Shown here piece after piece: positions 36,793-54,192 of a stretch of DNA of 64,000 nt. The stretch lies in NCBI RefSeq assembly GCF_021246445.1, contig NZ_JAJQXW010000001.1, positions 1,444,168 through 1,508,167 on the forward strand, in the 5' to 3' direction. Source of the DNA: Rhabdothermincola salaria (GTDB lineage Bacteria > Actinomycetota > Acidimicrobiia > Acidimicrobiales > Acidimicrobilacustridaceae). The translations under genes and the position numbers were made by a program. Position 1 is the stretch's first letter. Each line of letters opens with the position of its first letter. Below the pieces are notes generated by a model. The model was not told where the DNA came from. It did not search any database and saw nothing but the letters and a program-made list of their open reading frames with translations.

Positions 36793-38193
36793 ATGACACC
36801 CCCGCTCCCCTTCTCCCCTACGACACGGCTGGGCGGCCGCTACCGGCCCACTGCCCACCTGGCCACCGGGGGGATGGGGCAGGTCATCGAAGCGCACGAC
36901 GAGCGCCTGGGGCGGGCGGTGGCGGTGAAGGTCGTGGCCACCACCGATCCCGACCACACCCCCCGCCTGCGCGCCGAGGCGCTGGCCCTGGCCCGGTTGC
37001 GCCACCCGAACATCGTGGACGTCTACGACGTCGGCGAGCACGACGGCCGGGCCTACATCGTCACCGAGCTGATCCGAGGCGAGTCGCTCCAGGCCCGCGC
37101 CAGCCGCGATGGCCCTCTCCCGGTCCGCGAGGTGGCCCAGCTCGGGGCGGACGTCGCTCGCGCGCTCGAGTGCGCCCACGCCCACGGCGTCGTGCACCGC
37201 GATCTCAAGCCCGCCAACGTGCTCATCGAAGCCGAGACAGGCCGGGCCCAGCTCATCGACTTCGGCATCGCGGCATCCAGCCTGGCGGCCGGACTGACCC
37301 GAACGGGCACCGTGGTCGGCACGCCGGCCTATCTGAGCCCCGAACAGGTCGAGGGCCACAGCACCACCGCCGCCTCGGACGTGTACTCACTCGGTCTGGT
37401 GCTGCTCGAGGCCACGACGGGAGAACCCGCCTTCGAGGGCACCACGACCGAGACGATGGCCGCCCGGCTGGTCCGCTCCCCCCGCATCCCCGACGAGCTC
37501 GGCTCGCGGTGGCGTTGGCTGCTGTCGGCCATGACCCGACGCGATCCCGCGTCGCGACCCGACGCCTCGGCCCTGGCCGGGCTGCTCACCGCCATGGCCG
37601 ACGAGGCCGCCGGGGCCGACGATCGCTCCGACGAGTCGACGGCGATGGCACCGGCCACCGAGTGGGTCGCGCCGATCGGCCTCGCCGCGGCCGTCGAACA
37701 CCGGTCGCGACGATCGCGGGTCGCGGCAGTGGTGGCCGCCCTGGCCTTGGCCCTGACGACGCTGGGGATCGTGAGCCTGCAGGGCGGCGAGGAGACGGAA
37801 CCGGCCAGCGGGGAGGGCGTCGGGGGGTCCCTCCCCACCGCCGAGCCCGTCGTCGCGGTGACACCGGGCGAGATCGCTCCATCGAGCACCACCATCGCGC
37901 CGGATCCCACCGCGCTCGCGCCCATCGTGACCCCCGAGCCCACCACCACCACGACGAGCGAACCCGAGCCCACCACCACCACGACCACCGAACCCGAGCC
38001 CACCACCACGACCACCGAACCCGAGCCCACCACCACCACGACGAGCGAACCCGAGCCCACCACCACCACCGAACCCGAGCCCACCACCACCACGACCGAG
38101 TCCACGACAACCACCAGCGAGCCCACGACCACCACCACCGAGCCGGAACCCACCACCACCACCGAGCCGACCGAGCTCGACGACGGCGCCTGA
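36793..38193 (+). CDS. Ser/Thr protein kinase with TM segment and mucin-like tail
   Basis: GGMG, AVK, HRDLKPAN, DFG, GTPAYLSPEQ. Confidence 0.92.
   Translation: MTPPLPFSPTTRLGGRYRPTAHLATGGMGQVIEAHDERLGRAVAVKVVATTDPDHTPRLRAEALALARLRHPNIVDVYDVGEHDGRAYIVTELIRGESLQARASRDGPLPVREVAQLGADVARALECAHAHGVVHRDLKPANVLIEAETGRAQLIDFGIAASSLAAGLTRTGTVVGTPAYLSPEQVEGHSTTAASDVYSLGLVLLEATTGEPAFEGTTTETMAARLVRSPRIPDELGSRWRWLLSAMTRRDPASRPDASALAGLLTAMADEAAGADDRSDESTAMAPATEWVAPIGLAAAVEHRSRRSRVAAVVAALALALTTLGIVSLQGGEETEPASGEGVGGSLPTAEPVVAVTPGEIAPSSTTIAPDPTALAPIVTPEPTTTTTSEPEPTTTTTTEPEPTTTTTEPEPTTTTTSEPEPTTTTEPEPTTTTTESTTTTSEPTTTTTEPEPTTTTEPTELDDGA
37933..38170 (+). repeat. In-frame EPEP(T)n coding repeats
   Basis: About nine units of GAACCCGAGCCC(ACC/ACG)n with variable Thr count. 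Confidence 0.9.
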
Positions 38194-44236: not shown

Positions 44237-45209
44237 CGTCCTCGGGTGGTGGTGCCGGGTGACCCGAACGACGTCACCGCGCTCAGCGGCAGCCGATCAA
44301 GGAGTTGGCGCCACGACCGGTGTTGATCGCATACACGCACACCGGCAGACCACGCCCATCGATCGCCAACGTCCGCGAGAACCCGTGCGCCGACCCATAC
44401 CCCGGGAACGCCGCACCCACATCAGGCCGCGACCGATCCGCCGTCAACGCGAACCCGCTGCCCCCCACGTACACGTGCACATCGATCGGCGCCGCCGTAT
44501 CCGGATCCAACGCCCAACCAGCCACCCTCACCTCGGACCCCGAACGCGTCACCACATCGAGCGAACCGAACGGCGACCCCGACGGCACCACCACCGTGCG
44601 ACACCCCAACAAGGTGGTCGAACCACGACCCACGTTGATCGCGTACGCACACACCCGCTGAGCCCCCGGCGACGCCGACAACGTCCGCGAGAACCCGTGC
44701 GCCGACCCATACCCCGGATACGCCGCCCCCACATCGCTACGCGTGCGATCCGCGGTCAACGCCGTCCCCCGACCCCCCACGTACACATGCACCGGAATCG
44801 ACGCCGCCGTATCCGGATCCAACGCCCAACCAGCCACCCTCACCGACCCCGGACCCGCCGACACCACATCGAGCGAACCGAACGGCGACCCCGACGGCAC
44901 CACCACCGTGCGACACCCCAACAACGAGTTCCCACCCGACCCCACGTTGATCGCGTACGCACACACCTGGTGAGAACCACCCGACGCCGGCACCGACACC
45001 GAGAACCCGTGCGCCGACCCATACCCCGGGAACGCCGCACCCACATCCGACCGCGACCGATCCGCTCGCAGGGGGTACCCCCTTCCGTCCACGTACACGT
45101 GCACGTCGATCGACGCCGCCGTATCCGGATCCACCGCCCAACCAGCCACCCTCACCGACCCCGGACCCCCCGACACCACATCCAACGACCCCACCGGCGA
45201 CCCCGACGG
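44237..45209. repeat. Copy 1 of ~0.97-kb direct duplication (copy 2 at 47003-47975)
   Basis: Offset 2766 bp; first mismatch found at 45134; alternative-frame ORFs are identical in both copies. Confidence 0.93.
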
Positions 45210-46919
45210 CACCACCACCGTGCGACACCCCAACAACGAGTTGCCACCCGACCCCACGTTGATCGCGTACGCACACACCTGGTGAGAACCACCCGACGCC
45301 GGCACCGATGCCGAGAACCCGTGCGCCGACCCGTATCCCGGGAAGTCGTTGCCCACCTCGCTGCGCGGGCGATCCGCCGTCAGCACATGACCCACTCCAT
45401 CCACGTAGACGTGGATGTCGAGCGGGTTCGCGGTCGCAGGATCCAACGCCCAGCCCGACAGCGAAACCGACCGCGGACCGGTCTCCACCCGATCGAGCAA
45501 TCCGATCGGGGAGACGGTGAGGGTGTTGTTCCACGCCAGCACCTTGTCGACGTGCAGGAACCGTTGCCCCTGGCTGGTGCACTCCCCGTTGCCGTCGCAG
45601 TTCGAGTTGCTGGGGTAAGCCGAGTAGGGCGGGTTCCATGCGTGGTACGCCATGCGCAGCTGACCGTCGGCATCGACGAAGAGGCTCCCCCCGCCTGCAC
45701 CGTTGCGCTCGTCGTCGTTGGGCACCAACGGGGTGTCACGAGTGCGGACACACGGCCCGGACGGGCCGTCGCAGCGAGCGACACCCATGGCGTAGTTCGA
45801 CGACGCCCAGTCGTTGCCCGAGTAGAGGAGCCAGTAGGTGCCGCCATGGTGCACCATCGAGGGGTTCTCGATGATGGGTCCCTCCCACGGCAGCGCGGTC
45901 TCGAGGAGCAGGGCGGGCCGGGAGGTGGCGAACCCCGTGCCGGTGCTGTTCAGGCGCTGGGACCAGATGCGGGTCTGGCGCCAACCCGTGGGGCTGTTGC
46001 CCCCTTCGGACTTCCAGACGAGGTGGGCACGACCACTCTCGTCCCGGAAGACCTCGGGATCGATGCTGCCCGCGTGGTCGTCGTCGCACACCAGCGGCCG
46101 CGACGCCGTGTCACGGAAGGGACCCTCGGGCGAGGGCCCCGGCGCCGCCGAGATGCACCGACGACCCGGCGTCGAGGTCTCCCACGAGGTGTACGCCACC
46201 CAGGAGTCGCCGAACCGGGCGACACCTGGACCCCACTGGGCCTTGCCCGAGAAGTGCTGTGCTCCACCGAGCGACCACGACGGGGGCACCACGACGGCAT
46301 CGTTGAAATACGGGTCGCCGTTCCACTCGTTCGGATCGTGGGCGTCGCGCGCGTACCAGTTCTCCAGGTCGTCGGACCACATGGCCGGAAGGGTCGGTCC
46401 GCCGGTCGAGGTCGAGTACGCCCAGTACCGGTCGCCGTGGCGGACCACGGTGGGATCGGGGAAGTTCTGGTCGTAGAGCTGCCCCGGCTCGAACCAGGGC
46501 GCGCCGACGTACTGGGGATCGAACGCGCTCGAGGCCATGGGGTCCATGGCCGCCGGCGCCGATCCGGTGCCGGCCGTGGGCTCATCGTCGGTCGGACCCG
46601 GCTGGGGCGAGCTCGACGGGCTCGTGGCGGGCTCGGAGGGGTCCGGTCCTCCCGGGGCCGTCGGCTCGGGATCAGGGGCCTGCTCTGGGCCCGGGGTCGG
46701 CTCCGACGCGTCGGGATCCGGGGTCGGCTCAGGACCCGGTGCCGGTTCGGAGCCGGGTGCCGGCTCCGACGGTGCCTCAGGGGAGGTCGTCGTCGAGGAG
46801 GCCGACGGATCGACCGATCCCTCGGCCGCCGCGTTGCGCACGAGCGGGCTCAGGGTGACCAGGAGCGCCATGACGAGCGCAAGCGCGCCTACCCCACGAG
46901 CCGACCGAACCATCGCCAC
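44283..46919 (-). CDS. Secreted GH43-family glycoside hydrolase with four ~104-aa C-terminal repeats
   Basis: Signal peptide, PE-rich linker, FPDP, WGP, IDP and IENP motifs; repeats PFGSLDVV..VAGWALDPDT..CAYAIN..GCR. Confidence 0.85.
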   Translation of the reverse strand: MAMVRSARGVGALALVMALLVTLSPLVRNAAAEGSVDPSASSTTTSPEAPSEPAPGSEPAPGPEPTPDPDASEPTPGPEQAPDPEPTAPGGPDPSEPATSPSSSPQPGPTDDEPTAGTGSAPAAMDPMASSAFDPQYVGAPWFEPGQLYDQNFPDPTVVRHGDRYWAYSTSTGGPTLPAMWSDDLENWYARDAHDPNEWNGDPYFNDAVVVPPSWSLGGAQHFSGKAQWGPGVARFGDSWVAYTSWETSTPGRRCISAAPGPSPEGPFRDTASRPLVCDDDHAGSIDPEVFRDESGRAHLVWKSEGGNSPTGWRQTRIWSQRLNSTGTGFATSRPALLLETALPWEGPIIENPSMVHHGGTYWLLYSGNDWASSNYAMGVARCDGPSGPCVRTRDTPLVPNDDERNGAGGGSLFVDADGQLRMAYHAWNPPYSAYPSNSNCDGNGECTSQGQRFLHVDKVLAWNNTLTVSPIGLLDRVETGPRSVSLSGWALDPATANPLDIHVYVDGVGHVLTADRPRSEVGNDFPGYGSAHGFSASVPASGGSHQVCAYAINVGSGGNSLLGCRTVVVPSGSPVGSLDVVSGGPGSVRVAGWAVDPDTAASIDVHVYVDGRGYPLRADRSRSDVGAAFPGYGSAHGFSVSVPASGGSHQVCAYAINVGSGGNSLLGCRTVVVPSGSPFGSLDVVSAGPGSVRVAGWALDPDTAASIPVHVYVGGRGTALTADRTRSDVGAAYPGYGSAHGFSRTLSASPGAQRVCAYAINVGRGSTTLLGCRTVVVPSGSPFGSLDVVTRSGSEVRVAGWALDPDTAAPIDVHVYVGGSGFALTADRSRPDVGAAFPGYGSAHGFSRTLAIDGRGLPVCVYAINTGRGANSLIGCR

Positions 46920-47002: not shown

Positions 47003-47975
47003 CGTCCTCGGGTGGTGGTGCCGGGTGACCCGAACGACGTCACCGCGCTCAGCGGCAGCCGATCAAGGAGTTGGCGCCACGACCGGTGTTGATCGCATAC
47101 ACGCACACCGGCAGACCACGCCCATCGATCGCCAACGTCCGCGAGAACCCGTGCGCCGACCCATACCCCGGGAACGCCGCACCCACATCAGGCCGCGACC
47201 GATCCGCCGTCAACGCGAACCCGCTGCCCCCCACGTACACGTGCACATCGATCGGCGCCGCCGTATCCGGATCCAACGCCCAACCAGCCACCCTCACCTC
47301 GGACCCCGAACGCGTCACCACATCGAGCGAACCGAACGGCGACCCCGACGGCACCACCACCGTGCGACACCCCAACAAGGTGGTCGAACCACGACCCACG
47401 TTGATCGCGTACGCACACACCCGCTGAGCCCCCGGCGACGCCGACAACGTCCGCGAGAACCCGTGCGCCGACCCATACCCCGGATACGCCGCCCCCACAT
47501 CGCTACGCGTGCGATCCGCGGTCAACGCCGTCCCCCGACCCCCCACGTACACATGCACCGGAATCGACGCCGCCGTATCCGGATCCAACGCCCAACCAGC
47601 CACCCTCACCGACCCCGGACCCGCCGACACCACATCGAGCGAACCGAACGGCGACCCCGACGGCACCACCACCGTGCGACACCCCAACAACGAGTTCCCA
47701 CCCGACCCCACGTTGATCGCGTACGCACACACCTGGTGAGAACCACCCGACGCCGGCACCGACACCGAGAACCCGTGCGCCGACCCATACCCCGGGAACG
47801 CCGCACCCACATCCGACCGCGACCGATCCGCTCGCAGGGGGTACCCCCTTCCGTCCACGTACACGTGCACGTCGATCGACGCCGCCGTATCCGGATCCAA
47901 CGCCCAACCAGCCACCCTCACCGACCCCGGACCCCCCGACACCACATCGAGCGAACCGAACGGCGACCCCGACGG
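47003..47975. repeat. Copy 2 of ~0.97-kb direct duplication
   Basis: Matches 44237-45209, including 46 bp beyond the stop codon. Confidence 0.93.
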
Positions 47976-49619
47976 GAGCCCGGACGGGATGACGACGGAC
48001 GACCGCGTCGACGGGGCGCTCGTACCGTTGGAGCTGTTGGCGACGGCGGTGAAGGTGTACGCGACGCCGTTGCTGAGGCCGGTGACGGTGCAGCTCGTCC
48101 CGGAGGACGTGCACGTCGCACCGCCGGGACTGGCCGTGACGACCACATCGGTCACCGGTTCGCTGCCCGCGAACGACGGCGGGAGCCAGGAGACGGACGC
48201 GACGCCGAAGCCCCCGGTGGCGGTCACCGCCCGAGGAGGCGAGGGGACTCCGAGGAGCGCGGCGTCGAGCTGGATCCGGGGGAGCCCGGTCGACGAGAAC
48301 GACGTCGCCACGAGGCTCCCTGTAGTGCGCAGGCGGTCGACGACGTCATCGAGGGCGACGAGAGGATCGGCCTGGCGGAGCAGGGCGACGGCCCCGCTCA
48401 CCATCGGGGTCGCCATCGACGTCCCACTCATCAACGTGAAGCCCGCCACGGGCCAGGACGAGTCGATGGACTGCCCCGGCGCCAGGAGCGTGGTGAGGGT
48501 CGACGCGTTGGAGAAGGAGGCCAGCGCGCCCGAGGTCGACGTCGCCCCGACGCTGACGACCCCGGAGATGCAGGCAGGCTCGGCCATCATGCCGGTGGCC
48601 CCCTGGTTCCCGCTGGCGACGACCGTCGCCACCCCCACGCTGCGGAGCCGATCCACCTGCGTCTTGGTGGCCGACTTGGCCGCATCGCAGTACCCGCTGT
48701 GGAGCTTGTCGGTCCCCAGGCTCAGGTTCACCGCGTCGAGCTCGGCGAACCCGTCGATGCCGGCGTCCTTCTGCTCGTACAACCACTGCATCGCCTCGTT
48801 CAGGTCGGAGTCGTAGGCGAACAGGCACGGCGGGGTGCTGAGACACACTGCGGACGTCAGGCCCTGGGTGAAGACCTGCACCGCGATCACCGAGGCTCCC
48901 GACGCCACCCCGACCCGCTCGGCCGACGGCGACGACGGCCCGCCGACCGCGATGCCGGTCACGTGGGTCCCGTGGCCGCACGCATGCGCGGGGGCCGTGC
49001 AGGGGGAGGCGCTGCCGGGGCCCGTGGAATGGGTGGGGTCCTCTCCCGAGCACAAGCCGGCCATCCCCGACCTCGGCGAGCCGGCGAGGGACCAGCAGGC
49101 CTCGGCGACGACCTTGCCGGCCAGATAAGGGTGGTCCGCCTGCACCCCGGTGTCGAGCACGGCGATCGTGCGACCGGCCCCCGTGCCGCCGGCGGCGAGG
49201 GTGGCCGGCACGCCGATGGACTCCGCCCACGCGCCGGCCGTGACGTAGTTGCGTGCGTTGGGGATGATCTCCTCGACGAAGGGCGACTCCCGCAGCTCGG
49301 CGAGCTCGGCGGCGTCGACCGTCATCGCCACCTGGGGGGCTCGGCCGGCGCTGCGCACCTCGGCCGGTGACGCCGACGGCACGTCGGCCAGCACCTCGTC
49401 GACGACCTCTTCGCCCGGTCGATCGGTCACCACGATGACCTCTGCTTCGCCCGTGGTCGCCACCTCCTCGAGCGCGGCAGGAGCGACCGGCGCAGGAGGC
49501 GAGATCGGCTCCGGCTGGTCTTGGGCCTCGGCCGCACCGATGAGAGGTCCTCCCACGGCCATGACGACCGCCACCACGACGACGCAGAAGCGACGAGCCG
49601 CAGGGGACGTGAGGTTCAC
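47049..49619 (-). CDS. Secreted S8 subtilase with FN3 domain and three C-terminal repeats
   Basis: AVLDTG, HGTHVTG, SGTSMATP triad; FN3 VSWLPP...VTGLSNGVAYTF. Confidence 0.9.
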   Translation of the reverse strand: MNLTSPAARRFCVVVVAVVMAVGGPLIGAAEAQDQPEPISPPAPVAPAALEEVATTGEAEVIVVTDRPGEEVVDEVLADVPSASPAEVRSAGRAPQVAMTVDAAELAELRESPFVEEIIPNARNYVTAGAWAESIGVPATLAAGGTGAGRTIAVLDTGVQADHPYLAGKVVAEACWSLAGSPRSGMAGLCSGEDPTHSTGPGSASPCTAPAHACGHGTHVTGIAVGGPSSPSAERVGVASGASVIAVQVFTQGLTSAVCLSTPPCLFAYDSDLNEAMQWLYEQKDAGIDGFAELDAVNLSLGTDKLHSGYCDAAKSATKTQVDRLRSVGVATVVASGNQGATGMMAEPACISGVVSVGATSTSGALASFSNASTLTTLLAPGQSIDSSWPVAGFTLMSGTSMATPMVSGAVALLRQADPLVALDDVVDRLRTTGSLVATSFSSTGLPRIQLDAALLGVPSPPRAVTATGGFGVASVSWLPPSFAGSEPVTDVVVTASPGGATCTSSGTSCTVTGLSNGVAYTFTAVANSSNGTSAPSTRSSVVIPSGLPSGSPFGSLDVVSGGPGSVRVAGWALDPDTAASIDVHVYVDGRGYPLRADRSRSDVGAAFPGYGSAHGFSVSVPASGGSHQVCAYAINVGSGGNSLLGCRTVVVPSGSPFGSLDVVSAGPGSVRVAGWALDPDTAASIPVHVYVGGRGTALTADRTRSDVGAAYPGYGSAHGFSRTLSASPGAQRVCAYAINVGRGSTTLLGCRTVVVPSGSPFGSLDVVTRSGSEVRVAGWALDPDTAAPIDVHVYVGGSGFALTADRSRPDVGAAFPGYGSAHGFSRTLAIDGRGLPVCVYAINTGRGANSLIGCR

Positions 49620-50260: not shown

Positions 50261-50797
50261 TCAGGCCCCGGCGGGCTCGGTGTCGGGATGCAGGGCGTCG
50301 AGGAGGAACTTCAGATGGCCGGCGATGCGAGGTGACTCGAACTCCCAGCGCACTCCCGTGTCCTGGTCCTCCAGCTCGAAGGTGCGCACCCCCACCCTCG
50401 AGTGCACGGTGACGGCGATGCGATCACGGTCGTAGGCGAAGAGCTGCTCACCGGGCTCGCGACGACCGACGTGGGGCTTGATCCGCCAACCGTAGAGACG
50501 GGTCTTCGACGCCGCCACCAGGCTCTCCCAGGGCACGATGCGCACCTCGCCGCCGGTCTCGCTGACTACGTGTCCGTCGTGGTGCTTCTCGGCGGCGTAG
50601 CCGGCGGCCCCACCGGCCAGACCGAGTGCGGCGCCGAACAAGCCGTCGCCGGCGATGTTGCCCAGCGAGGTGCCGACCGCCGAGCCGCCCGTGACCCCAC
50701 CCGAGGTGCCTCGGGGCTGGAACCAGGCGGCGGCCACGATGGTGTCGCCGTCTCCGACGACGGCCTGGGCCCGGTCGATCAAGTCCTGCTCGCTCAT
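50261..50797 (-). CDS. Hypothetical protein with glycine-zipper-like segment
   Basis: SD GGAG before ATG 50797; MSEQDLIDRAQ...; Gly/Ala-rich helix followed by a beta-rich domain. Confidence 0.7.
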   Translation of the reverse strand: MSEQDLIDRAQAVVGDGDTIVAAAWFQPRGTSGGVTGGSAVGTSLGNIAGDGLFGAALGLAGGAAGYAAEKHHDGHVVSETGGEVRIVPWESLVAASKTRLYGWRIKPHVGRREPGEQLFAYDRDRIAVTVHSRVGVRTFELEDQDTGVRWEFESPRIAGHLKFLLDALHPDTEPAGA

Positions 50798-50817
50798 GTC
50801 GGTCTCCGAGGTAGGTG

Positions 50818-50839
50818 GGTGGTGGTGGTGGTGGTGGTG
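50818..50839. repeat. (GGT)7 microsatellite in the 5' leader of the 50797 gene
   Basis: GGTGGTGGTGGTGGTGGTGGTG. Confidence 0.85.
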
Positions 50840-50851
50840 AGAGCCCCCTTG

Positions 50852-50879
50852 TCTTCGGCTCCGACCGGCACCTCCTGAA
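50852..50879 (-). promoter_or_regulatory. Candidate sigma28 (FliA/WhiG-type) promoter
   Basis: Minus strand TTCA-N16-GCCGAAGA, about 55 nt upstream of ATG 50797. Confidence 0.5.
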
Positions 50880-50906
50880 CCCCTTTCCCGGGCCGACCGG
50901 GCGACC

Positions 50907-52475
50907 TCAGTCGTAGACCGCCTCCAGCCACCAGCGGCCGCCCTCCACGTACACGAGCACGGCCCGACCGTCGACCAGGGCCAGCTGGAGACGGGCCCGC
51001 CGTCGTCGCTCCGGGCCGTCCCACCACCGTTCGTCGGCCGGCCACGGGCCCGCCCACGCCAGAACCCGGTGGGCGGGCCCGCCGTCGAGCACCACCTCGA
51101 CCGGCGCCCCGCTGATGCCCCCCCGACCGTCGACGACGACGACGACGCCGTCGCCGTCGCGCACCTCGACCGGCGCCGGATCGGGCGGTACCAGCGCCGG
51201 GGAGGGAGCCGGCACCTGCCCCGGCCAGGGCGCCTCGGCGGCCGGTGTCGGACCTCGAGGCCCGGTGAGCTCGACGGCGGCGGCGGGGACCCGCACCACC
51301 CGTTCGCCCGGTCCCCGTCCGCCGCGGGGTTCGGGCACGGTGACGGCATCGGGCCCCAGCAGGCCCTGCACCCGGGCCAGGCCGCGCCGGGCCCGTTCGG
51401 AGGCACCCGACTCCCCACCCCAGAAGCCCAGCTGGCGACCGGTGGCGGCCACCACCTCCTCGGGGGTGAGGACCAGGCGGACCACTCCCCCGGTGGGCCG
51501 GTGGGCCCGAGGACCGTTCAACCACCCGTCGAGCTGCCACCGCACCCGATCGGCCACCGCCCCGGGCCCCAGCGCGCCTTCGTGGCGCCACACCCGTTCG
51601 TGGACCTCGCCCTGGTCGGTCTCGGCGCTCACCAGCACCCGGGTGCAGGCCAGCCCGTCGGTGTCGAGACGGGCGTGGAGCTCGTCGGCCAGCCCCTTGG
51701 CCACGAAGGCCACCACGTCGACGCGCTCGGCCGGAGGATCGAGGTCGGCGGCCACCTCGAGGTGGCGCGGCGGCGGACCGGTGGCGGGCGGGTGCTCGTC
51801 GAGACCACGGGCCAGACGGTGAGCGCCCCGACCGTCGGCGCCGAAGCGGGCGACCACGTCGCCGGCGTCGAGGGCCGCGAACGCACCGAGGGTGCGCAGG
51901 CCGAGCCGCACCAACACGTCGACCAGATCGGGCTGGTCGAGCGTGGTCACCGGGCGGGGGGCCAGGAACGCCGGGGTGCCCCCGGGTGCCACCACCTGGG
52001 AGCCCGGGACTGCGGCGCGTGCCGCCAGGCCGGCTGCGAAGGCGCCATCGGCCACACCCACGCCGGCGTGCCCCTCCCATCCCCGTTCGGAGAGCACCTC
52101 GTCGACGGTGGTGAACACGGCTGTCGCCAGCGCGGTGTCCCCACCGAAGTAGCGCGCCGGACCACGGGTGGGGAAGGTGACCACGCCCGGCCCGGACAGC
52201 TCGAGGCGAGGCGTGTAGCGCTCGAGGGCGGCGGCCACCCCGGCGAAGGCCCGGGCGTCACGGGCCTCGTCGTGCTCGTGCACGACCAGGTCGGGGCAGC
52301 GCCCCTGGGCCTCACGACGACGTTGGCCGGCCGCCACCCCCTCGGCCCGCGCCGCCGGCGTGGCGGCTCGGACCCGGTTGGCCCGCACCACCACCGCCGG
52401 TTCGTCCGGGCCGGCTCCCGCGGCCGCCACCGGCCAGTCCGGGCACCAGACCACCAGCGCCCGCACCGCACTCAC
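50907..52475 (-). CDS. imuB: ImuB, inactive Y-family polymerase homolog
   Basis: VVWCPDWP, RRREAQGRCP, LGLRTLG, DRVRWQLDGWL, WAGPW..DERWW, EAVYD; GTG start at 52475. Confidence 0.92.
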   Translation of the reverse strand: MSAVRALVVWCPDWPVAAAGAGPDEPAVVVRANRVRAATPAARAEGVAAGQRRREAQGRCPDLVVHEHDEARDARAFAGVAAALERYTPRLELSGPGVVTFPTRGPARYFGGDTALATAVFTTVDEVLSERGWEGHAGVGVADGAFAAGLAARAAVPGSQVVAPGGTPAFLAPRPVTTLDQPDLVDVLVRLGLRTLGAFAALDAGDVVARFGADGRGAHRLARGLDEHPPATGPPPRHLEVAADLDPPAERVDVVAFVAKGLADELHARLDTDGLACTRVLVSAETDQGEVHERVWRHEGALGPGAVADRVRWQLDGWLNGPRAHRPTGGVVRLVLTPEEVVAATGRQLGFWGGESGASERARRGLARVQGLLGPDAVTVPEPRGGRGPGERVVRVPAAAVELTGPRGPTPAAEAPWPGQVPAPSPALVPPDPAPVEVRDGDGVVVVVDGRGGISGAPVEVVLDGGPAHRVLAWAGPWPADERWWDGPERRRRARLQLALVDGRAVLVYVEGGRWWLEAVYD

Positions 52476-52549
52476 GACACCACCCGAAGCCGGGCCCGAA
52501 CCGTCCCCCCACGACCACAGTGGGCCACCAGCGCCCGCACCGCGCTCAC
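52472..52549 (-). CDS. Repeat-encoded 25-aa mini-ORF 2 (putative translational coupler)
   Basis: GTG...TGA, (M)SAVRALVAHCGRGGTVRARLRVVS; GTGA overlaps at both ends. Confidence 0.5.
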   Translation of the reverse strand: MSAVRALVAHCGRGGTVRARLRVVS

Positions 52550-52623
52550 GACACCACCCGAAGCCGGGCCCGAACCGTCCCCCCACGACCACAGTGGGCC
52601 ACCAGCGCCCGCACCGCGCTCAC
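52546..52623 (-). CDS. Repeat-encoded 25-aa mini-ORF 1 (putative translational coupler)
   Basis: Start overlaps the imuA' stop (GTGA); stop overlaps the mini-ORF 2 start. Confidence 0.5.
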   Translation of the reverse strand: MSAVRALVAHCGRGGTVRARLRVVS

Positions 52624-53366
52624 GACACCACCCGAAGCCGTGACGGGGCCGAGGGTTGGAGCCGTTCGGTCGTGCCATCAGCGGGCAACCACACCTCGCC
52701 CCGACGGGGTCGGGCCGCCCGGCCCCGGCCGTCGGCGGTCACCACCACCTGGCGGCGGCGCAGGTGCCCGTGACCCTGCCCCAGGCCCTCCCACCGGACC
52801 TCGGTGACGCCGAGGATCACGTCGCAGGCCCACTCACCCAACATCCTCCGTGACGGTGGCCTCGCCCCCCCGGTTCCGCCGGCACCACCCGACACGAGGG
52901 CACCGGGAGCGACGGGGACCAGCACCGAGCCTCGCTCCCGGGCGCGGGCGGCGAGGCGCCTGGTGTCTCGGGCGGCGAGACGAAGTCGGGCGTCGACCAG
53001 CACCAGGTCGACGGCGCCGATCAACGCCGCCACCGTGGGGGCCCACGTGGCGGGGTCGTGACGGGGCAGCGCCACCAACGCCAGGCGGTCGAGGGCCACC
53101 CCGAGCTCGGCGGCCGCGGCCAGGCCCAGCTCGGGCAGGCCCACCACCGCCGCCCACGACCCGTCTCGTGACGGGCCGGCCACGAGGGTCAGGGCCAGCG
53201 ACGTGGCTCCCGCGCCTCCGGCCACCCCCACCACCGAACCACGGGCGACGGCCCCCTCGGGCAGCAGCGGGGCCAGCGCCTCCACCACGGGCAGGGTCTG
53301 GTGGCGGGCCAGGGTGACCGGGGCGGCCCGGTCGGCGATCTCACGGAGCTCGGCGGGGACAGCCAC
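52620..53366 (-). CDS. imuA: ImuA'-like RecA-fold mutasome accessory protein
   Basis: LPV..ALAPLLP.G...RGS, GATSL, WAAVVG.P.LGLAAAAELG, RRLAARARERG, GLGQGHG; directly upstream of imuB. Confidence 0.9.
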   Translation of the reverse strand: MAVPAELREIADRAAPVTLARHQTLPVVEALAPLLPEGAVARGSVVGVAGGAGATSLALTLVAGPSRDGSWAAVVGLPELGLAAAAELGVALDRLALVALPRHDPATWAPTVAALIGAVDLVLVDARLRLAARDTRRLAARARERGSVLVPVAPGALVSGGAGGTGGARPPSRRMLGEWACDVILGVTEVRWEGLGQGHGHLRRRQVVVTADGRGRAARPRRGEVWLPADGTTERLQPSAPSRLRVVS

Positions 53367-53376
53367 CCCGCCAGTA

Positions 53377-53392
53377 TCGAACAGCTGTTCGA
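53377..53392. promoter_or_regulatory. LexA SOS box upstream of imuA'
   Basis: TCGAAC-AGCT-GTTCGA, perfect actinobacterial consensus, 10 nt before GTG. Confidence 0.93.
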
Positions 53393-53430
53393 GTCAGGCA
53401 AGCGGGGTCAGCTCATCGCGGGGCGCCGGT

Positions 53431-54192
53431 TCACCGCCGCGCCAGGAGGCGCTCCAGGTCGTCGAGCACGAAGGGGCCCTCGGTGCCGCACATCAAGATC
53501 ACGTGGGTGGCGCCCGCCTCGACGAAGGCGTCCACCTGCTCGATCTCGCCGCCGCTGATCGCCACCGTGCGCTCGATCTCGCCGGGGTCGCGGCCCACCT
53601 CGGCGCACCAGCGGTCGAGCACGCTGCTCTTGTGGGCGAAGACCTCCGGAGGCCCGAAGGTGTTCCAGGCGTCGGCGTAGCGGGCGGTGATACGCAGGGT
53701 GACCTTCTCGCCTCCGCCACCGATGAGGATCGGCAGGTCTCCCACCGGTGGGGGCACCAACCGGTCGATCCGGGCCTTGATCCGTTCGAGAGAGGCCTCG
53801 AGGGCGGCGAGACGGGATCCGGCGGTCCCGAACTCATAGCCGTACTCGTCGTGGTCGCGCTCGAACCACCCGGCGCCGAGCCCCAGGTAGGCACGCCCGT
53901 CGCTGATGTGGTCGACGGTGCGGGCCATGTCCGCCAGCAGCTCGGGGTTGCGGTAGGTGTTGCCCGTGACGAGCATCCCGAGGCGGGCGTGGGAGGTGTC
54001 GGCCGCCATGGCCGTCAGCGTCGTCCACCCCTCGAAGTGGTTGCCCGCCGGATCGCCGTAGAGCGGGAAGAAGTGGTCCCACGTCCAGATGGAGTCGACC
54101 CCCATCTCGTCGGCCGCCCGGGCCGCCGCCCGCAGATCGGCCATGGTCGTGTGCTGGGGTTGCAACTGCACCCCGACCTCGAAACGGGTCAT
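53431..54192 (-). CDS. LLM-class F420-dependent oxidoreductase
   Basis: WTWDHFFPL, YRNPELLADMARTVDHIS.GR, IGGGGEKVTL. Confidence 0.9.
   Translation of the reverse strand: MTRFEVGVQLQPQHTTMADLRAAARAADEMGVDSIWTWDHFFPLYGDPAGNHFEGWTTLTAMAADTSHARLGMLVTGNTYRNPELLADMARTVDHISDGRAYLGLGAGWFERDHDEYGYEFGTAGSRLAALEASLERIKARIDRLVPPPVGDLPILIGGGGEKVTLRITARYADAWNTFGPPEVFAHKSSVLDRWCAEVGRDPGEIERTVAISGGEIEQVDAFVEAGATHVILMCGTEGPFVLDDLERLLARR

Follow-up and report, generated by a model that had tools for sequence, protein, structure and literature searches.

In our study, a tandem array was found between the imuA' and imuB genes of Rhabdothermincola salaria, in which the stop/start overlap of the two genes is repeated together with a short spacer. 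The array probably arose recently as a VNTR-like minisatellite, by local tandem duplication of the stop/start overlap between imuA' and imuB; it would have been kept since the chain of reading frames was left unbroken, and be carried as a tolerated passenger. The window, that is, the whole stretch of DNA that was analysed, is 64,000 nucleotides long, and positions without a contig prefix refer to it. The array extends from 52451 to 52640 with a period of 74 nucleotides, 2.57 copies (2.6 by TRF), 99% matches and a TRF score of 373. A repeat search of the window placed the in-register 74-nt copies at 52451-52524, 52525-52598, and 52599-52672, where the identity of the copy at 52599-52672 was limited to its first 42 nucleotides. 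The features of the locus were as follows.

53377-53392, no strand assigned: perfect LexA/SOS-box-like palindrome TCGAAC-N4-GTTCGA, placed 11 nt upstream of imuA' (motif scan)
52620-53366, minus strand: imuA', 248 aa, with its TGA stop at 52622-52620 (ORF and model NF058630)
52451-52640, minus strand: whole array, 74-nt unit x 2.57, in the form block-spacer-block-spacer-block (TRF and repeat search)
52599-52640, minus strand: junction block copy 1, the last 21 nt of imuA' and the first 25 nt of an imuB-type start, with GTGA common to both
52567-52598, minus strand: spacer copy 1, 32 nt, with no significant match in the flanks, the genome or relatives
52546-52623, minus strand: mini-ORF 1, 25 codons plus stop, whose GTG overlaps the imuA' stop and whose TGA overlaps the next GTG (ORF list, 25 aa, GTG)
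52525-52566, minus strand: junction block copy 2 (repeat search)
52493-52524, minus strand: spacer copy 2, 32 nt, the same as spacer copy 1
52472-52549, minus strand: mini-ORF 2, 25 codons plus stop, whose TGA (52474-52472) overlaps the imuB GTG (52475-52473) (sequence)
52451-52492, minus strand: junction block copy 3, the functional imuB start (sequence and repeat search)
50907-52475, minus strand: imuB, 522 aa from the GTG at 52475 (ORF; start set by the N-termini of relatives)

The 42-nt junction block (21 + 25 - 4) was present at three positions, and the 32-nt spacer occurred exactly twice, against zero occurrences expected from 100 shuffles. The sole difference between the copies was an A/G at 52470, which gives AGT or AGC, and Ser either way, at codon 2 of imuB. 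On the minus strand the order was imuA', a 25-codon ORF, a second 25-codon ORF and imuB, with the GTGA stop/start overlap at all three joints of the array. With a length of 74, equal to 3 x 25 - 1, i.e., 3n - 1, every unit forms an ORF of 25 codons. Mini-ORF 2 was masked in the ORF list by a longer ORF of the same frame (52472-52678). The Shine-Dalgarno likeness before each GTG, read from the sequence by eye, was weak and too near the start. The folded structure of the 241-nt junction RNA was not outstanding (z = -0.41 versus shuffles), no Rfam match was obtained in 52200-53500 at E up to 1, and no promoter-like or terminator-like sites were found in 50500-53700. A search for RNA runs containing the stretch gave none.

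The identity of ImuA' was given by model NF058630 (117.2 bits, cutoff 65) and that of ImuB by the Pfam IMS domain (33 bits, cutoff 23.2), followed by full-length identities of 45-79% between this ImuB and those of relatives. The two genes are adjacent and co-directional, and the pair occurs together in most related loci. The ORF list contained no DnaE2-sized ORF adjoining imuB. The imuB frame extends without a stop as far as the GTG at 52592, from which the ORF is 561 aa long. The palindrome upstream of imuA', TCGAAC-N4-GTTCGA, which we take to be the LexA/SOS-box consensus, was the only match without mismatches among 57 sites with three or fewer mismatches in the 64-kb window. The transcript of imuA' is probably leaderless, because a -10-like GATACT (53378-53373, minus strand) lies only 6 nt before its GTG. 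The imuA'-imuB pair is a predicted LexA-controlled two-gene operon, the binding of LexA being itself a prediction. The original prediction had described the three blocks with two identical spacers, the 74-bp period of 3n - 1 with its overlapping 25-codon ORFs and the coupling of the chain at any copy number; TRF and the repeat search recovered the first, the sequence and the ORF list agreed on the second, and the arithmetic of the third was correct. Its naming of imuA' and imuB was confirmed by the models, and the SOS context that it had assumed is in keeping with the predicted LexA box.

The 74-nt unit was found at one locus only in the 3.9-Mb Acidimicrobiales genome (G000). The next-best genomic match covered 37 nt with 84% identity and was at the level of chance, as 55 of 200 random genomic 74-mers had a second match as good or better. 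This match lies in a carboxyltransferase-like gene (C3:382990-383026, 31 of 37 nt), which was rejected as a donor of the spacer, its score being equalled by 6 of 200 dinucleotide shuffles and by the same 55 of 200 genomic 74-mers. The derivation of the spacer from a diverged imuA' tail, imuB head or junction block was rejected as well: local alignments were not significant, and the best of them, spacer versus block, was reached by 213 of 2000 shuffles. The spacer of locus L036, aligned with its own imuA' tail, was likewise reached by 213 of 2000 shuffles. Searches for the spacer in the loci of relatives gave nothing beyond 13-15 nt, and it was not found in JGI metagenome contigs. The repeat search showed no inverted repeat within the unit or beside it. 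A real dispersed intergenic repeat is present in this genome and has a different sequence. No second clear junction relay was found in the same genome by TRF or by a 14-mer direct-repeat scan, which gave 233 repeats, 59 of them with a period not divisible by 3. Two candidates were discarded, namely a 20-nt ATGA-bearing repeat at C1:613747, which had no long ORF downstream, and a second, unrelated 74-nt repeat at C3:30341-30503, in which the 3' end of a different gene is duplicated. A plain tandem duplication does not account for the block-spacer-block form or for the 32-nt spacer.

All four same-genus genomes contained a single plain GTGA junction, on which imuB starts with the same N-terminus. 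Two metagenome contigs also carried a single junction; these are k-mer contigs of other samples with depths of 2-5, none of them from the source genome. In the contig of run X1 (393 nt, 8 differences, about 98% identical, depth 4.6) position 52448 was joined to 52597, so that 148 nt, or 2 x 74, were skipped relative to the window, and in the X3 contig the block ran directly into the imuA' flank. No metagenome run spanned 52518-52591, and of the metagenome data the evidence drawn on here is the X1 joint and the loose end in X3. Genome and metagenome scans that used residues 1-200 of ImuB reached no more than 63% identity and revealed no sister strain carrying this unit, and the copy number of the R. 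salaria array rests on one assembly. A strain-level difference was clear in another lineage. Loci L153 and L154, with flanks at least 99.5% identical, differ by a 148-nt indel, one of the two having one relay unit and the other two, all joints being GTGA. Loci L045 and L124 (about 95-96% identical) both keep a 26-nt relay despite a change from ATG to GTG at the second start.

A survey of 104 genome loci in which the imuA' stop could be called, that of the window included, gave a 4-nt overlap in 48, a mini-ORF relay in 10 and, in 31, a different start that lies between -4 and +12 nt in frame with imuB, followed by 7 with no start nearby, 2 broken and 6 unresolved. Among 80 metagenome loci, 40 were direct and 13 had a relay, whereas 3 had no start, 1 was broken, 13 were unresolved and 10 had no imuA' match. 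Of the 26 non-direct junctions, 10 had no chain: 3 were broken and 7 lacked a nearby start. Under a strict test, which counted repeats of 12 nt or more only if the imuA' stop lay in the first copy, 6 of 155 junctions were positive. Four of these were relays, namely L011 (the window), L036 (76 nt), L045 (26 nt), and L153 (106 nt); the chain was kept in L129 (18 nt), and L103 (18 nt) had no start nearby. The relay units differed by lineage, with no common sequence and with lengths of 26, 74, 76, and 98-106 nt. Some loci are not independent, since L045/L124, L153/L154, and L126/L134/L135/L148 count as one lineage each. On these predicted overlaps the imuA'-imuB junction is normally coupled, and unrelated relay insertions occupy it in other lineages. 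The original prediction had called the arrangement unfamiliar in imu operons; unrelated relays were found at this junction in other lineages, and one versus two units in L153/L154.

The rule that the period keeps the frame is a weaker argument than it appears. When an NTGA junction is duplicated, one of the three phases yields a relay and another an in-frame extension of ImuB, so that a chain is kept by chance in about two of three cases. In a perturbation control, 48% of the variants changed by 1 or 2 nt still reached imuB.

The history that we favour starts from a single GTGA junction as the ancestral state; between the genes there are now two additional 74-nt units, both made of a junction block and the 32-nt spacer. 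Each unit would serve as a 25-codon ORF with its GTG on the previous TGA and its TGA on the next GTG. Termination-reinitiation occurs at overlapping stop/start pairs (PMC6728339), and short ORFs can deliver ribosomes, with MIRUs as a natural example (PMC12548453). Since a GTG and a TGA overlap at each unit, ribosomes ending imuA' could reinitiate stepwise and still arrive at imuB. We infer translation of the mini-ORFs, and a supply of ribosomes to imuB by reinitiation and not by independent initiation. The array most likely persists because the coupling is not broken, and it would be a tolerated passenger, perhaps with a slight weakening of imuB translation.

Other readings were weighed against this local duplication. 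The number of units may act as an adaptive rheostat, in which ribosomes are lost at each step and the unit number is a heritable, reversible setting of the ImuB:ImuA' ratio and of damage-induced mutagenesis. Copy number differs between L153 and L154 and appears to differ between the window and the X1 contig, relay insertions recur at this junction in several lineages, reinitiation efficiencies are reported to be variable and often below 100% (PMC6728339), and ImuB is described as the mutasome hub (PMC10421592). We consider this reading unlikely, as the units share neither sequence nor length across lineages, as accidents would, roughly two-thirds of the phases survive by chance, and the junction RNA lacks an outstanding fold. 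The broader proposal that the junction is a recurrent contingency locus, with the unit number as a reversible switch of ImuB dosage, is quite unlikely. It is also improbable that there is no relay, with imuB translated independently or as an extended ImuB of 561 aa from the GTG at 52592 and the mini-ORFs silent. The open frame up to 52592 is consistent with such an extension, and 13 other loci (9 genome, 4 metagenome) have an imuB-frame extension of at least 16 codons from an overlapping or nearby start. Against it, imuB starts on GTGA with the same N-terminus in all four same-genus relatives, the extension would pass through the two units in different frames, the X1 and X3 contigs, with their single junction, do not have it at all, and no promoter-like site was seen in 50500-53700.

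An assembly artefact, in which the true junction is single or has another copy number and the array was made or miscounted in assembly, would agree with the single junctions of the X1 and X3 contigs. It is very unlikely, as the 32-nt spacer exists nowhere else in the genome and cannot be invented by an assembler, the array measures merely 190 nt, and its copies differ at one synonymous site. Other perfect tandem repeats were resolved in the same assembly, and arrays of a comparable kind stand at this junction in independent assemblies. Membership of a mobile, MIRU-like or MITE-like family with start codons as insertion sites is suggested by the 74-nt size, the position in an operon and the overlapping ORF ends, which match the description of MIRUs (PMC3184786, PMC12548453). 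This reading is largely refuted and has very little probability: the unit has one genomic locus and no inverted repeats in or around it, its ends are local gene ends common to relatives that lack the spacer, the spacer is missing from the JGI metagenome contigs and the loci of relatives, and the true dispersed intergenic repeat of the genome is another sequence.

Should the relay function in the way proposed here, a mobile element would not be required for the MIRU solution, and any overlapping junction could grow a variable-number repeat, given a period that keeps the chain of small ORFs. In the imu operon the ImuA' tail and the junction are hypervariable, the coupling of imuB is usually kept, and strain-level copy-number variants exist, whereby the effect of coupling on mutasome stoichiometry becomes testable with simple reporters. 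If the junction were a contingency locus, lineages could gain or lose units and so move the damage-induced mutation rate up or down. Such arrays also mislead gene callers; in this case a call that begins at the GTG at 52592 makes imuB 39 codons too long.

The array shares the properties of a VNTR or minisatellite in that near-identical units lie head to tail and the block is the native junction of relatives; the spacer is not local sequence, so that local duplication explains the array in part. The imuA'-imuB/dnaE2 genes form a split mutagenic cassette of Actinomycetota with a DNA-damage-inducible imuA'-imuB operon (PMC10421592). The two-gene operon is likewise present here, with a perfect LexA box upstream; a junction repeat or mini-ORF is not mentioned in the part of that description at hand, whereas both are present in this genome. 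The NTGA overlap of co-directional genes is common to our locus and to the termination-reinitiation pairs of PMC6728339, coupling being predicted here; in the array three such overlaps follow one another, separated by two 25-codon ORFs, whereas serial relays are not described in the accessible part of that source.

The comparison with MIRUs was made by description. The original prediction had named the 77-bp unit in mycobacterial senX3-regX3 as an example. MIRUs are tandem units of 40-100 bp inside operons, with small ORF ends that overlap the flanking genes at a spacing of -4 and with a copy number that varies among strains (PMC3184786, PMC12548453). The imu unit is alike in its size of 74 nt, in its tandem arrangement (x 2.57) within an operon and in the ends of its 25-codon ORF, which overlap the neighbours by GTGA at all three joints. 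MIRUs are dispersed over about 40-50 loci per genome and carry signs of transposition, namely tetranucleotide direct repeats, imperfect terminal inverted repeats and filled versus empty sites (PMC3184786), whereas the imu unit occupies one locus, has no inverted ends and is flanked by the 42-nt native junction as its repeat. It is built from local gene ends and a unique spacer, and its host belongs to another class of Actinomycetota. The original prediction had suggested looking for the spacer at other gene junctions of the genome, and one locus only was returned for the unit; its term MIRU-like stands for the stop/start relay logic and fails for a dispersed or mobile family. The imu array is not a MIRU-type family but a locally made look-alike of MIRU logic.

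The tandem array between imuA' and imuB was found by TRF at 52451–52640 with a period of 74 nt, 2.6 copies, 99% matches and a score of 373, and a second repeat search gave the identical register. The 32-nt spacer had two exact occurrences (0 expected), and the array copies differed solely at 52470 (AGT/AGC, synonymous). The original prediction of junction blocks, spacer and mini-ORF chain was right in all details.

Features of the imuA'-imuB operon and its junction
53366..52620, minus strand: imuA', 248 aa; ImuA' model NF058630, 117.2 bits (cutoff 65)
52622–52620, minus strand: imuA' stop TGA, read from the sequence
GTG at 52623 to TGA 52548–52546, minus strand: mini-ORF 1, 25 codons, in the ORF listing
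GTG at 52549 to TGA 52474–52472, minus strand: mini-ORF 2, 25 codons, identical to mini-ORF 1
52475, minus strand: imuB start GTG, read from the sequence
52475..50907, minus strand: imuB, 522 aa, Y-family IMS domain
53377–53392: palindrome TCGAAC-N4-GTTCGA, perfect match, 11 nt upstream of the imuA' GTG

The source genome (71.8% GC, 3.9 Mb, 7 contigs) and the window are high in GC. The closest ImuB relatives were found in Acidimicrobiales and Iamiaceae MAGs, and full-length alignment with relatives' ImuB gave 45–79% identity. The palindrome upstream of imuA' was the sole 0-mismatch site in the 64-kb window, and we take it to be the actinobacterial LexA box consensus, a putative site. A −10-like GATACT overlapped this palindrome, and its end lay 6 nt from the imuA' GTG; imuA' is thus possibly leaderless. 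No promoter-like or terminator-like sites were found within 50500–53700 and no Rfam family matched in 52200–53500, while the junction RNA folded no better than shuffled sequences (z = −0.41). The Shine-Dalgarno likeness ahead of each GTG was, by reading of the sequence, weak and near the start; imuB is therefore probably fed by ribosomes coming from upstream.

Our preferred reading, which we hold to be fairly likely, is that a local duplication recently put extra junction units between imuA' and imuB, and that the array has been tolerated since a unit of this period leaves termination-reinitiation intact; ribosomes would terminate and reinitiate through the two bridging ORFs and then reach imuB. 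Termination-reinitiation at overlapping stop/start pairs is documented, with variable efficiency, in the portion of PMC6728339 consulted. The array was found to start and end with the native block, and its spacer resembled neither flank in alignment. The same form, block, new sequence and block, was shared by two related loci, L036 and L045; duplicating native sequence alone would not produce it. Tuning by copy number, as originally suggested, is possible but does not stand as a claim, its support being limited to copy-number variation. The original interpretation is supported in part, namely in its relay logic.

In the same-genus genomes, a single plain GTGA junction with the imuB start on GTGA was present in 4/4. 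One of these (L014) contained an imuA' tail that shifts frame upstream of the junction and an imuB aligning in two pieces in different frames (residues 1–136 and 135–522); either the genes are decaying or the MAG, which is 77% complete, is in error there. Among public metagenome runs, a contig of X1 (393 nt, depth 4.6) showed 8 differences to the window (~98% identity) and joined 52448 to 52597, omitting 148 nt, or 2x74, and in a contig of X3 (154 nt) the block ran straight into the imuA' flank; both are k-mer contigs of other samples, not reads of the source genome. The spacer was not covered in any of the public runs compared. Single-junction alleles thus exist in close relatives, and the window's own copy number rests on assembly. 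Position 52450 was G in X3 and in the run X4, and the X1 join gives the same base. With this G, imuB codon 9 is GCC, as in the internal copies, and the functional terminal copy contained GTC; the duplication is therefore older than this substitution.

We classified 184 related loci by script. Species-representative genomes supplied 104 of them, counting the locus of the window itself, and metagenome contigs the other 80. Starts were looked for between −4 and +12 nt relative to the imuA' stop. Several loci belong to one lineage, hence the counts are not independent.

Junction classes (genome set; metagenome set)
4-nt overlap: 48/104; 12/80
Other direct start in the imuB frame: 31/104; 28/80
Mini-ORF relay: 10/104; 13/80
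No start nearby: 7/104; 3/80
Broken: 2/104; 1/80
Unresolved: 6/104; 13/80
No imuA' hit: class not counted; 10/80

A strict test, requiring a repeat of 12 nt or more with the imuA' stop inside its first copy, picked 6 of the 155 resolved junctions.

Junctions picked by the strict test
L011 (window): relay
L036: 40-nt block, 36-nt spacer, period 76, TGAgATG joints, 24-codon ORF; relay
L045: 17-nt block, 9-nt spacer, period 26, ATGA joints; relay
L153: period 106; relay
L129: period 18; chain kept
L103: period 18; no start nearby

Relays were also found from shorter units, e.g., L116 (17-nt ATGA units) and L055. L045 was 95–96% identical to L124, and both contained the 26-nt relay, the second start changing from ATG to GTG. 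The metagenome contigs L153 and L154, with at least 99.5% identity in both flanks (imuA' and imuB), differed by a 148-nt junction indel (L153:729-1045 vs L154:877-1045), one unit against two, with GTGA at all joints. One contig of this pair contained a single 98-nt relay unit, and the other two units plus a 42-nt insert bearing a hairpin-like palindrome. The chain finder was permissive: after perturbation by 1 or 2 nt, 48% of variants still reached imuB. This follows because a duplicated NTGA block can lie in three phases, only one of which breaks the chain; the others give a relay and an in-frame ImuB extension. With a wider start window, 16 of 26 non-direct junctions were relays, 7 had no start and 3 were broken. 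A preserved chain is the rule, not universal.

The ImuA' C-terminal tail (52620–52700 in the window, and in related loci) was hypervariable in length. Relatives' tails were often short in-frame tandem repeats (L033, 18 nt x 8.9; L085, 30 nt x 9.5; L028 and L067, 36 nt x 2.6–2.9), and that of the window was far shorter than in same-genus genomes.

The 190-nt array was found at a single locus of its own genome. The next-best genomic match (37 nt, 84% identity, inside a carboxyltransferase-like gene) was at chance level, as 55/200 random genomic 74-mers scored no worse. Genome-wide TRF and a direct-repeat scan found no second junction relay. The 74-nt unit contained no inverted repeats, and neither the JGI metagenome contigs nor the related loci searched contained the 32-nt spacer. 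The imu unit is not a member of a repeat family, and MIRU-type membership falls on these points.

The genome's real REP/MITE-like family is a dispersed intergenic repeat of ~40–190 nt, sometimes tandem and unrelated in sequence to the imu unit, located outside the window at C1:457144, 1593564 and 1700191; C2:863704; C3:390051-390421; C4:154897; and C5:99683. An unrelated 74-nt tandem repeat (C3:30341-30503, also outside the window; 2.2 copies, 94%) copies the 3' end and stop codon of a gene that is, from its C-terminal peptide, presumably acyl-CoA-dehydrogenase-like. Within the window, two adjoining secreted-protein genes were found:

44283–46919, minus strand: GH43 glycosyl hydrolase gene (Pfam, 118 bits)
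47049–49619, minus strand: S8 subtilase gene with fn3 domain

Both contained a C-terminal module of three ~104-aa repeats, 306/309 aa being identical between them (312-nt TRF repeats at 44367–45382 and 47133–47975, respectively); the repeat domain had no Pfam match, and the shared module suggests that gene conversion or module transfer took place recently. An imperfect tandem array at 37929–38181 (27–57 nt, Pro/Thr-rich-looking units, CCACCACCACGACCACCGAACCCGAGC-like) is probably the linker region of a secreted protein.

No paper was found that deals with tandem repeats or relay ORFs at the imuA'-imuB junction, or with locally duplicated stop/start junctions, most subscription journals being outside the search. 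The consulted part of PMC10421592 describes imuA'-imuB as the two-gene operon of the split cassette, and a junction repeat is not mentioned in that part. MIRUs are, in the part of PMC3184786 consulted, a dispersed family of 40–50 loci with signs of transposition. The originally predicted relay logic, a chain of GTGA stop/start pairs, holds and works as in the MIRUs, but the imu array is not a MIRU.
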